Notes: generated by a model not told the origin, from the letters alone. A DNA stretch of 56,118 nucleotides, filler included, from Dugesia japonica (GCA_001938525.1; 4 parts of 4 records of this genome joined end to end with filler, not necessarily neighbours in it), one strand, 5' to 3'; counted from the whole stretch's first letter, positions 14,078 through 19,235 are shown. Made by a program: numbers and translations.

Positions 14078-15305
14078 TGTAATAAATATTTATATCGTTA
14101 TTTCTTCTTCCTTTTGAAAGGCAAAAAATACATGATTACGTTTGATTTTGATTATTTTAGAACTTCTATTGCTCACAGAACAAGAATCTTAACTTTTCTG
14201 CACTTTTCTGCACTTTTCCGATAAAAGTCGCCGACGCTTCCGAGAAGACCGGTTTCAGGACGACCGGGTAAATTATGGGCGGTTATGGCTAATCCCTAGA
14301 TTCAAGTAAATAAAATCAAATCCATGCCTCAACATTATTATAAGAAATAATTTTATTTAATAGAACGTAATTAAATTGAATATTAGTATTTAATTAATTG
14401 TAATCACTTATAATTATCTAATCAAATATTTTTTTTATAAGCATAATAAATGATGTCTAAAATATTAGTTGTGATTTGGAAAATAAATTTTCAATTGAAG
14501 ATTTACCTAACATGGTGCTAGTGGTGGGAAACCAATTCTATTACAGATAGGTTATTGCCGAATGTGTTTTACGGAGGAGATTATATTGAGAAATTCATCA
14601 AGCTGTGCGAATTGTATTTTGAAGCTGAAAACATCACCCAGCTGAAACAACAGGAGAGATTAGTCTCTTGTTTGTTAAATGATGATTTGTTGAAAGAATT
14701 TGCGAAGACGTTGAAAAAAATGAAGGTTTTTAGGCTCGTTTACGTATAACACTTGAGAAAGAGAAAGATGTTATCAAAACCTTTCAAAATTTGATTAACT
14801 ACAGGCGTAGAGGATTTTGTTGGAGCCATTCATTGTTAAATTAAGTGAGTGATTATCCTCAAGGAGTGAAAGAAGATCTTACACAATTGAAAGTCAAAAC
14901 CTCAAACGCGTTTATTTTTACTATACTCAATGTTGTATGATATCGGATAATATGAAAGTTACAGGAAAAGTATACAAGTTCTTAAAGAGGGCAAATTTTC
15001 GGGAAACATAAAAGTAGAATGGGTTTGAAAAGTTGAAGCAAAACAGAAAACAAATATTTTGTACCATAAATTGCAAGGCAAACCAAGTGTTACGGTATCA
15101 ATTCGAGGAAATAAAGTTGAATGTCTATTAGAAACAGGGGTTCGGATGAACATTATGAGTTTGAGTTGTTTTAATAAATTATGAGAACTACATTTAGAAA
15201 TGATTGATGAAAGATTTTGTTATGCAAATAATAGTACACTTGAAATTGTTGGGAAAGTTAGAAGAAGTTTGCAAAAAGGTTACTTTCTTAGTTGCTGAGA
15301 GTGAC
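14078..15305 (+). mobile_element. Ty3/Gypsy 5' part: putative LTR (TG..CA, ends 14512), tRNA-Leu-like PBS, decayed gag and aspartic protease
   Basis: ...TAACA|TGGTGCTAGTGGTGGGA (14513-14529) resembles the tRNA-Leu PBS TGGTGTCAGAAGTGGGA. The gag-like segment is FYGGDYIEKFIKLCELYFEAENI and the protease-like segment is IRGNKVECLLETGVRMNIM (~15100). The element is truncated at ~15305 by the Polinton-like block. Confidence 0.7.
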
Positions 15306-15688
15306 ATGTCATCTTCTTATTCATACTCTATTAAAAAATTATCCAAGTCTTCATTATTAAGACTATCATTATTCAACCTCACTGGTTCCATCAACATTTT
15401 TTTAGTATCCACCGCTTCCGTTGGATATATCAACATATCTTCATTATTTAAAACCCCCGATACAATCACCTCTGAATTATGATCAATCACAAGTAGATAG
15501 ATATGAGCGCTGATTAAAACTGTTATAATTGTTATCAATAATAAATGTTACTATCTTAAATGTTATTAAAAATTACTTTTCTAATTAAAATAACTCATTT
15601 CATTATTAATAAAAACTAATTTACTTAATAAAAAATTAAAACCAAAATTAAAAACCAAATAAATTAAAAAATATTTATTTAATAAAAA

Positions 15689-16172
15689 TTATTCTAGTCG
15701 TCTTCTTTTTGGGTTGTCGATGTAACCGTCCAAAACTTTGTACATATTTCTTCTCATACACCCAATATATGTGTATGTCATCGCAATTGAGGAATAATCG
15801 GCCAGAACTAATTTGATATCGATATCCTGGCATTCTTTGATGTCCGACCATATTGTATTCTCCGGCCAGAACATTGCATCGTCATTTAAATGCTTCATCC
15901 TCAAAAAGAATTTCCAATGCAATTTATAGAAAAATATATGTAGTAATATAAAAATAATAAACAGTTAAAAATACTCTTCTCTGTATTATACGGATTCTCA
16001 TTCCATTTCACCATTCTTCTCTTTCAATCTCTTTATCCGGTTCCTCCATAATTACATCTTCTTGCTTAGTTTCTTCGTCTATGATGACGGTCATGTTATC
16101 ATCATCATCTTCCATTACATTGACAAGGTCATCATCAAATTTGGGAAGTTCTGATAGTTCGTAATTGCACAT
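15689..16172 (-). pseudogene. Polinton accessory ORF(s): acidic N-terminal part (ATG 16172) and C-terminal part ending in an NLS-like PKRRRLE, possibly spliced
   Basis: MCNYELSELPKFDDDLVNVMEDDDNMTVIIDEETKQED..., then an AT-rich ~50-nt GT-starting spacer, then ORF 15689-15922. There is one internal stop and the acceptor is imperfect. Confidence 0.4.
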
Positions 16173-16385
16173 GATTTTTTTTTAACTAAAATTGATTGAA
16201 AATGTTCTTGTATATATATTTAATTACAATGTGATAATTTTTACAAATCAAAATTGACCAATCAAATTTTAGTAAACAAGAGTACTTTGTTTATTTGCTT
16301 TTGAACAGCACGCACGTTGCAAAATGTAGTTATATTTTATAATTTATCAAGTGAATTATCCACATATCCTTGATAATATAAATTC

Positions 16386-17339
16386 TTGAGACCAAGTATG
16401 ACAAAGACCAAAAAGTGGTTATTGGGTCAACTGGCTTACAGTCTGAATAAACCAATGTTGAAAAGATTTCCTATAAGAGCACATAAAACATATTGTATGA
16501 ACGATTTATGGCAAATGGATTTGATGGAAATGATTCCGTCTTCGAAAATAATAAGGGATACAAGTATATTTTGACGTGTATTGATGTCTTAAACAGATTA
16601 GCACGTGCAATTCCCGCAAAACTGAAATCTGCCACCGACATGGAAACTGCAATCAAAACAATGTTGAACGAGGGACATCCAGATAATTTACAAACTGATC
16701 TGGGTAATGAATTTTATAATTCAAAAGTTAAAAATCTTTTAGCACATTTTAAAAAAAACTATTATATAGTACCTTCACAGTACAAGGCTGCACTTGTAGA
16801 GAGATTTAATCGAACATTAAGAGAACCTTTAAAAATACTTTATGCATGCTGGAAAGAAAACCTGGATAAACGTTTTGTTGAAATTAATTCAGTTCAAATC
16901 ATTCTAGTCATAAAGATGTGAAAGGAGCAAAAACTATAGATTTATAAACAAAAAATCAATAAAAATTATGGTTATCGCGTCATCAAAATAAAGCAAATAA
17001 GAAACCGAAATATAAAGTCGCTGACCATGTTAGAATCTCAAAAATAAGTGCATCTTCATTCATTAAAAACTTTGATAGTAATTGGAGCGACGAAGTCTTG
17101 AAAATAATGAAAATCAATACTAAACAAAATCCAGTCATGTATGTAATTAAAGATTATGAGAATAATATAATACAAGAAAAATTTTATGAGCAGGAATTAC
17201 AAGTCATTCTATCTCCTTCTCTATATAAAATCGACAAAAATATAAAATCGTGAGGAACAAAAAAGAATAAACAATATTATGTAAAGTGGCATGGATATCA
17301 AAAACCTACTGGGATATTAGCATCACAGTTAGTTAATAA
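16386..17339 (+). pseudogene. Retroviral-type (rve) integrase with C-terminal chromodomain, Polinton type, frameshifted
   Basis: NDLWQMDL..., GYKYILTCIDV, LQTDLGNEFYN and KAALVERFNRTL (DDE core), then KYKVADHVRISK, NWSDEV, FYEQELQ and QYYVKWHGYQK (chromodomain). Confidence 0.9.
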
Positions 17340-18351
17340 TGACATCGAGTAATTTCTATACACTTTTACCTAGTAATAACTGTGCAATTATTCATCAGGA
17401 TAATAATGCCAGTAAATTCATTGCTAAGCTACAAAATCCAATTTATATGGATAGAAAGTGGGAAGTAGCATTGTTAGATTTTACCTTTGTATATCTAACA
17501 TTTCCATTATATAGCAATTCTAAAATTCAACACATGTTTACAAAAAATATATCAACTGAAATAACTGTTACAATTAATCATAAAGAATAATCCTTGAGTG
17601 TCAGTAAAAATGACAATGTTTATATATCTAATATGGGTTATATAACTATTAAATGTGAATATCCATATGTTGTCATATTTGAAAATGAAAAATTCGCAAA
17701 TAGATTTAGATTCCCACATATGACTAACAAAATGGATCCTGGATATTATGGTAATATTTATACAATACTTAAAGAAGATTATCCAAGAGAATATGTAAAA
17801 TTTAAAATAGAGTATTTTAAAGTAATTTGCGATATTATACAGTTGAAAGATGAATTATACATAAAAGAATTAGAAGATTTAAATAAATATTTTACAGAAA
17901 GTGGTTCTGAACTAATACGATTAGTCTCAAAGTAAATAATCTATTTCAATTGTCGTTAAAAAATGATATCAAAATTGTTACATTCGATAAAGTTTTGACA
18001 AGAACATTGAGATTAGAAAAACAACAATATTCACACGTAAAATTGAAGGATGGTGTATTGCAAGGTATTAGAAATCCGAAAATAATTAAGTTACATCAAC
18101 AAATGTTCATCTATAGTAGTATTGTTGAACCTATAATTGTAGGAGATGTTAAAGTTCCTCTTTTGAAATCTGTATGGGTAGAAAAGCATGAAAATGATGA
18201 AGATGTTCAAATAATAGTTGATAATCCAATTGCTACAACATGTATAAACAATATGAAAATTAATATACGTGATAATAACGGGAAATTAATCAAGTTTGCA
18301 AAAGACTATAAAACAGATTTAACTTTACAGTTTCCAAAAATAAATCAATAA
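17339..18351 (+). pseudogene. Minor capsid protein (penton, PX) of Polinton/adintovirus, interrupted by stops
   Basis: N-terminal FYTLLPSNN...NNASKF...L.NPI...WEVAL and C-terminal MFIYSSIVEPIIVGDVKVPLLKSV...INIRDNNGKLIKF are characteristic of Polinton pentons. A variable middle insertion separates them. Confidence 0.85.
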
Positions 18352-18793
18352 TCCCGATATTGTGTCGTTGTAAAGCAGTAGTCAAGCTGGTAGAGAATTA
18401 CCTTATTTTGTAGGAAAACAGTATGCTTCCGGCTGGTTGTGAACAATATGTAGATTCGCTTCATATTCTTAGACAAATTGGTTCATTTGGTATGAAAACT
18501 GCTCAGGTTGTACTGGCTAATAATGGAAAGCTATTACCAACACTAAAATCGAATGCAATGACTGAACTTGGTGATGTAGTATCTTCATTGCCTAACGGAG
18601 TGACTAACATAATAGCAAAGTAGGAAAAATATGACTGACAAGTATAACAAGCAAAATATCAAGTAGTATAAGTAATATTTTAACAAATCAACAAAAACCT
18701 GAAAACCAACAAGTTAAAAGTGGTAAGCTTAAAAAATCAAACAAGTCACGTATAAACAAACGAATGAAAGGACATGTAACTATATTTGAATAA
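18351..18793 (+). pseudogene. Basic virion core-like protein (Polinton PZ/adintovirus core type), decayed
   Basis: QAGRELPYFVGKQYASGWL motif, then a Lys/Arg-rich tail KSGKLKKSNKSRINKRMKGHVTIFE*, whose TAA overlaps the hexon ATG. Confidence 0.6.
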
Positions 18794-19130
18794 TGATTTG
18801 TGAAAAAACTGAATTGTGTATTCCTGGTCGACCATCTCCCCAATCGGTTATTAAGTATAGTGCATTTGCGGATGTGTTTCCAATGAATACAATTTTGGAA
18901 GGTAGAAATGATGTAGAGTTTTATATAAATGGATCCCAAACAGAATACTGTGACTTAAATGATACTTTATTTAAGTAAAAATTAAGATTTGGCTGATAAT
19001 TCTGATGTGGTATCTAGCAATTACATATTTCAATCGTTATTTAAAGATGTATCCATGTCATTTAATACTATGAAAATTGAGGGCAGGAATGGAACTCATA
19101 TCCAAAAAGCATTGATTGTTGTTCATTGAA
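18793..19130 (+). pseudogene. Major capsid protein (hexon, double jelly-roll PY) N-terminal fragment
   Basis: MICEKTELCIPGRPSPQSVIKYSAFADVFPMNTI...VEFYINGSQTEYCDLNDTLF matches the Polinton MCP N-terminus pattern (C.K.EL..F..P.TQ..I....EF.I.G...Y.DL..T). Confidence 0.8.
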
Positions 19131-19235
19131 CATTACTATTAAAAACATTAATTTTAATACAAATTATGGATTTTTAATATTTCACACTTATNNNNNNNNN
19201 NNNNNNNNNNNNNNNNNNNNNNNNNNNNNNNNNNN

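Follow-up and report, generated by a model that had tools for sequence, protein, structure and literature searches.

The expression of densely packed, intronless Polinton genes in the eukaryotic nucleus bears on whether these elements are autonomous or depend on a helper, and a run of capsid genes in the planarian Dugesia japonica raises the question of how each gene of such a run is expressed. The window (the whole stretch of DNA analysed, 56,118 nucleotides with filler, in which four parts of genome GCA_001938525.1 are joined end to end) holds this run in its first stretch, G000:C301190, where integrase, penton, PW and hexon follow each other from 16395 to 19118. Here G000 denotes the contigs of this genome, sister copies are the other G000 copies, relatives are metagenome loci and P-numbers refer to database proteins. 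The reading favoured below, which we consider likely, is that penton, PW and hexon are expressed separately, each from a TATAAAC-type box located within the tail of the gene that precedes it, and that this box is probably read with the element's TBP-like protein. Neither the cassette nor its TAATG is out of the ordinary, and the capsid module has already been described in vertebrate Mavericks; what the window adds is a test against translational coupling, a codon-level constraint and a spacer switch.

The stretch belongs to a multi-copy Polinton/Maverick family, of which it is a decayed copy with an internal deletion and without ends; its features are collected in Table 1. The DNA from 16400 to 19190 is matched by 40 scored contigs (its own included) of 9501 candidates, the main matches being of 79-86%. 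Family homology in G000 extends from about 15511 to 19118, with 80-86% matches beginning at 15511 or 15517 in many contigs, and 15290-15510 matches no other place in G000, so that the start at 15306 given in the preliminary description of this DNA has to be moved. Positions 15511-17 were considered as the terminus of the element and rejected: the sister copies run on leftwards with at least 500 further common bases, missing from the window copy, and the left edge is therefore a break. No Pfam match of note was obtained for the left-arm region. The deletion at 16401-04, of about 2 kb as judged by L019, took the TBP-like gene, the A32-type ATPase, PZ and the integrase start; these genes occupy the same interval in sister copies and none of them matches the window. 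Both ends of the window copy are cut, and none of the stretches examined holds both ends of the element.

Table 1. Features of the element copy, with positions counted from the first nucleotide of the window
Feature	Position	Strand	Remarks
Left-arm accessory region	15511..16404	.	left-truncated, no terminus; 80-86% matches start at 15511/15517
Two small frames in left arm	16011-16172 (acidic), 15689-15964	minus	of no known family
Internal-deletion junction	16401..16404	.	L019/L020 match both sides, with 2.0/1.2 kb in between
Integrase remnant	16395..17352	+	rve E 5e-5, Chromo E 0.025; frameshifted, in-frame stop
AATAAAC box	17266..17272	+	integrase tail, 73 nt before penton ATG; predicted promoter, weaker variant
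TAATG letters	17337..17341	+	penton start at the ATG; TAA out of the integrase frame
Penton (single jelly-roll minor capsid protein)	17339..18351	+	one in-frame stop, one frameshift
TATAAAC box	18243..18249	+	on Ile-Asn codons of the penton tail, 101 nt upstream of where PW starts; predicted promoter
PW gene (small basic protein between penton and hexon)	18344..18793	+	start codon lost, one stop, two frameshifts
TATAAAC box	18751..18757	+	PW tail, Ile-Asn codons, 42 nt before hexon ATG; predicted promoter
True TAATG	18791..18795	+	PW stop / hexon start, 1-nt overlap
Hexon 5' quarter (double jelly-roll major capsid protein)	18793..19118	+	frameshifted, cut off; homology ends at 19118

Two side observations may be added. 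A retroviral-type aspartyl protease remnant (15010-15307, gag-asp_proteas E 0.05), repeated in many contigs, lies next to the Polinton fragment, which thus adjoins an LTR-retrotransposon relic. The cox1 gene of the host reads under mitochondrial table 9, the code of flatworms or echinoderms; in L149, a cox1-like stretch open under this table follows a 5' part in which the frame is interrupted by stops, and is possibly a frameshifted nuclear copy.

The identity of the genes rests on several sources. The retroviral-like integrase typical of Polintons/Mavericks is recognised by its rve and Chromo matches, and the remnant, with rve core and C-terminal chromodomain, is 54-65% identical to the integrase of L059. 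Pfam names neither penton, PW nor hexon, PW having no family match at all. The model of a stop-free sister frame of the penton (L003, pLDDT 83.7) matches the mavirus penton (E 1e-8) and also adenovirus penton bases, while the model of P0024 (pLDDT 84.3), to which the hexon pieces are 73% and 65% identical, matches the major capsid proteins of iridovirus, PBCV-1 and virophage (E 3e-16). PW, 73-84% identical to a sister frame of its own, is named by position as in PMC8097293. Moreover, the A32-type packaging ATPase, deleted from the window copy, is found in sister copy L007 (PF04665, E 1e-6), and the adenain protease gives a match below the cut-off in L046 (PF00770, E 0.026), its expected position after the hexon in sister copies lying beyond the end of the window copy. 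As regards the polymerase, sister contigs match a 1298-aa ORF of L059, for which Pfam gives only DNA_pol_B (E 0.012) and Endonuclease_7, with no PF03175 match. A scan of viral_contigs with hexon, penton and TBP-like sequences found nothing.

The preliminary description was right on the gene set and its order, which domain matches, structure models and sister-copy identity confirm, and its view of a fossil capsid-encoding Polinton with tightly packed genes is supported, all four remaining genes being broken. The structure prediction that it recommended gave a single jelly roll for the penton and a double one for the hexon, on the sister frame and P0024, respectively. As regards its suggestion of an element that may be undescribed for this host lineage, the module is known (PMC8097293) and Maverick expansions have been reported in planarians in the available text of bioRxiv 10.64898/2025.12.11.693146.

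Two tandem pentons overlapping by 4 or 8 nt occur in the relatives L053, L054 and L056-L059, in most cases with a box in the tail of the first penton. Accessory host-like genes for a dual-specificity phosphatase, TRAF/MATH, RING and ubiquitin-conjugating enzyme are found at L052:190-3328 and L059:222-719. A comparison of L021, L025, L031 and L033 with L023, L026 and L059 shows that the placement of the polymerase-like gene varies: some G000 copies have it downstream on the strand of the cassette, others have it upstream on the opposite strand, and L059 has it downstream on the opposite strand.

The junctions between the genes had been read as TAATG stop/start overlaps, of which one proves genuine. 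The motif is found six times in 16401-19191, as compared with about 6.8 expected from base composition. At the integrase-penton junction the TAA at 17337 is out of the integrase frame, which reads through it and stops at 17350-52, giving a 14-nt overlap with the penton; among 23 copies the TAATG letters are kept in 18 and no integrase ends at this TAA, the overlaps being of 14 nt (nine copies), 17 nt (two) and 11 nt (one), with 11 copies broken or unscorable. The TAATC at 18349, previously taken for a decayed TAATG, has its ATC outside the PW frame, and sister copies start PW 8 or 11 nt before the penton stop ends; the 49 copies scored at this junction overlap by 8 nt (28), 11 nt (7) or 1 nt (2), or otherwise (12). 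A TAATG at the penton-PW junction of the second subfamily was likewise ruled out, the overlap there being of 8 nt. Only between PW and hexon (18791) does the claim hold, and of 41 copies 13, the window copy included, have TAATG, 11 a 14-nt overlap and six a 4-nt overlap, with 11 broken or unscorable. A stop fixed at the downstream start, the feature of termination-reinitiation, is thus present in 0/23, 2/49 and 13/41 copies at the three junctions, and TAATG as an organising signal reduces to one junction of three, in one subfamily.

Related copies without the overlaps had been named as evidence against the original proposal; in the relatives the genes are indeed tightly packed, and it is the TAATG word that is not kept across copies. 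In 53 hand-picked junctions from 22 of 32 metagenome loci, a count that includes near-duplicate loci, 27 overlap by 1, 4 or 8 nt, eight overlap by 17-34 nt and 18 have spacers of 2-48 nt. Furthermore, 17 of the 20 database pentons P0001-P0020 have a terminal dipeptide whose codons can conceal an out-of-frame ATG, as compared with a background of 11%, which indicates that the short penton overlap is old. Tight packing appears to be old and general, and the TAATG word does not.

A different signal is placed 42-101 nt upstream of each start, inside the preceding gene: the box TATAAAC, in the form AATAAAC before the penton. In G000 copies it is retained in 18/22 integrase tails (as AATAAAC), 33/46 penton tails and 34/41 PW tails, and a box N-ATAAAC precedes the ATPase in 15/15 copies and TATAAAC precedes PZ in 6/10; the integrase-tail site of relatives reads CATAAAC or AATAAAC. 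The G000 copies descend from few ancestors, so the intact relatives provide the stronger test. In 44 ORFs from 17 metagenome loci, Ile-Asn is encoded as ATA AAC in 25/41 cases within the last 130 nt and in 0/44 elsewhere, with 9.8% expected, and TATAAAC occurs 23 times in ORF tails as compared with 2.9 +/- 1.3 (maximum 7) under 1000 synonymous shuffles. The box is fixed at the DNA level in intact relatives. The pentons illustrate this constraint: of seven that overlap the next gene, six carry the in-gene box (the seventh has TATAAAT), reading S/A-I-N about 103-112 nt from the end, and six followed by a spacer of 31-48 nt read F/M-N/T-S/T-I-E there, without the in-gene box, and have it in the spacer or across the stop instead (five TATAAAC, one CATAAAC).

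The placement of the box was scored in a non-redundant set of 15 pieces (51 kb) from which near-duplicate loci had been removed. It occurs 42 times in the sense and five times in the antisense orientation, and the first ATG at +30 or beyond opens an ORF of at least 60 aa for 37 of 45 boxes, as compared with 339 of 2246 (15%) for its anagrams; the box sites are related by descent, so that Fisher p-values on such counts are inflated. The ATG-to-ORF score peaks at +30 to +32, a peak that is due in part to a single homologous ATG, at +29 in the tails of the pentons. About 30 nt is the usual distance between TATA box and start for polymerase II. G000 copies often have ATGs closer to the box than +30; beyond this distance, the first ATG coincides with the gene start in 12/17 cases for penton, 24/35 for PW and 36/43 for hexon. 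A fourth TATAAAC, at 16943, was dropped as private to the window copy (1/18).

There are also misfits. The protease gene has its box at -11, -13 and -29 in relatives and in only 1/8 G000 copies, an ATG at +31 lies ahead of the penton start in 5/17 copies, and 8/45 boxes lead to no long ORF. The PolB and ubiquitin-conjugating genes of L059 also carry the box, which is thus not purely late. AATAAA is not depleted inside ORFs (43 vs 45), and the promoter model therefore leaves 3' ends unaccounted for. In addition, a small conserved Met-Gly ORF, without Pfam match, overlaps the integrase start (L056:1076-1294; L052:4530-5006; G000 copies before integrase); in L056/L057 and the G000 copies a box precedes its ATG by as little as 8-15 nt, and the promoter model accordingly fails to explain it.

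The candidate reader of the box is a TBP-like protein encoded by the family. In L059 it has 149 aa and two repeats (PF00352, E 5e-18), its best solved relatives being archaeal and eukaryotic TBPs. The gene has at least 150 matches in G000, where it stands head to head with the ATPase, and the database contains about 89 clusters of it above 35% identity. Distant loci, all of them incomplete, speak for a pairing of gene and box: five show no enrichment of the box (7 vs 5), and the four long ones, L074, L076, L079 and L080, give no TBP match. Upstream of 19 copies TATAAAC is never found, and TATAWAW at -50..-28 is found in 12; the L059 gene has neither TATAAAC nor canonical TATA upstream. The family alignment keeps the C-terminal YEPELFP repeat and has a shortened N-terminal repeat, and with such a repeat the protein may not bind DNA. 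In TBP, the 3' half of the TATA box is held by the N-terminal repeat, and it is in this half, at position 7, that TATAAAC deviates. Both the upstream boxes and this gene had been missed in the preliminary description.

The scheme that we propose sets out from what is observed: which genes are present, where they are broken and overlap, where the box lies and how it is conserved as DNA, and that sister copies carry a TBP-like gene. Transcription by host RNA polymerase II would begin some 30 nt past each box, and the ATG of each gene would then be the first met by the scanning ribosome, which would make spacers dispensable and allow frames to overlap by 1-17 nt without any fixed stop/start word. 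Judging from sequence, separate capped transcripts from internal promoters are very probable. Through the canonical TATA upstream of its gene, the TBP-like protein would be made first (early), with the help of host TBP, and would then switch on the boxed genes (late); that the element's own protein reads the box in such an early-to-late cascade, by analogy with the TATT system of beta- and gammaherpesviruses, is the view towards which we lean. Reads of three RNA runs, at 80% likeness, fall on both strands, are short, mostly less than 90% alike (1120/1553 in X3) and lie on decayed copies; no piled-up read starts were seen among them, and they are uninformative.

The internal promoters could also be read by host TBP or by a host TBP paralogue, the TBP-like protein being otherwise employed, for instance as a decoy for TFIIB or for proteins that regulate host TBP. 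We regard this as rather unlikely: the box is indeed one letter off canonical TATA, stands at polymerase II spacing, occurs ahead of PolB as well and is present in L052, in whose 6.9 kb there is no TBP match, but the C at position 7 is specific, as TATAAAC leads to an ORF in 46/55 cases, TATAAAA in 9/41 and TATATAA in 7/40, and the TBP-like gene itself uses the canonical box (12/19) and never TATAAAC. It is barely credible, on the other hand, that the box simply results from protein motifs being conserved in AT-rich DNA. It coincides with a conserved Ile-Asn in the penton and PW tails, in DNA of about 28% GC; nevertheless, codon choice is fixed in the tails only, the box occurs in non-coding spacers and, in the integrase, in another reading frame, and the strand bias of 42 vs 5 is left over, so that this explanation is already largely refuted.

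Translational coupling, as originally put forward, would involve one polycistronic RNA with termination-reinitiation at the stop/start overlaps. The core of TURBS is UGGGA, and TGGGA is found upstream in only 1/17 of the relatives' junctions and 3/112 of the family's own. The type of overlap differs between subfamilies, and the eight long overlaps and the 18 spacers of up to 48 nt among the 53 junctions, together with a box left unexplained, make this mechanism very improbable in spite of the 27 short overlaps, the true PW-hexon TAATG of the window copy and a reinitiation that can cope with a distance of up to about 20 nt between stop and start (PMC10275272). Coupling may add a minor side route.

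Expression from internal boxes read with the element's TBP-like protein would have consequences beyond this copy. There may be a clade of animal Polintons with its own early-to-late switch, from host TBP to a minimal element TBP and then to a private TATAAAC box in the capsid genes that fixes Ile-Asn in penton and PW wherever the spacer is lost; we find this wider picture about evenly balanced. If true, it would be evidence for these Polintons as transcriptionally autonomous viruses. The box is also a clear instance in which a predicted promoter determines part of the amino acid sequence of a capsid protein. Since it yields exact predicted start sites, at about 17296, 18273 and 18781 in the window, and a candidate reader, the question becomes testable.

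Among known systems, vertebrate Mavericks carry the module int-mCP-PW-MCP-protease (PMC8097293), in identical gene order and with a PW between minor and major capsid genes that likewise has no characterised function. Here, in contrast, the integrase is preceded on its own strand by ATPase and PZ, and the TBP-like gene faces away from the ATPase; the available text of PMC8097293 gives no overlaps or internal promoters. Beta adintoviruses (bioRxiv 10.1101/697771; PMC8502044) have integrase, penton, hexon and packaging ATPase in common with the family, probably together with an adenain-like gene, and their PolB is described, in the available text, as divergent from PF03175, to which the polymerase-like ORF of L059 gives no match; an OTU domain on PolB and GasderminX and Cupiennin genes are further features described for them. 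As far as available, bioRxiv 10.1101/697771 names TBP only in figure legends on non-animal MELD viruses and mentions no promoter box. Apart from these legends, the literature search turned up neither the box nor, for animal Polintons, a TBP gene, and figures or supplements may label such a gene; neither TATA nor promoter is mentioned in the available portion of PMC11161782, a supplement file of PMC8502044 has no match for TBP, TATA or planarian names, and the available portions of bioRxiv 10.1101/2023.08.22.554363 and PMC6431247 contribute nothing further.

UAAUG termination-reinitiation is known from caliciviruses, influenza B and SART1 (PMC10275272). The likeness consists in one true TAATG overlap, between PW and hexon, whereas in this family TAATG is not kept across junctions and subfamilies and the TURBS-like core is missing. 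Finally, the late system of beta- and gammaherpesviruses employs BcRF1/ORF24/UL87 with a TATT box (PMC4893493), and has in common with the present family a virus-encoded TBP-like protein (here at the family level, the window copy having lost the gene) and a variant TATA box ahead of the structural genes. In the herpesvirus system this protein binds the box and recruits polymerase II late, and the viral pre-initiation complex has six subunits. The Polinton protein, of about 150 aa, is recognisably a TBP by sequence, and the variant letter of the box is at position 7. Should the scheme hold, a herpesvirus-like late programme would operate in an integrating element of about 15 kb.
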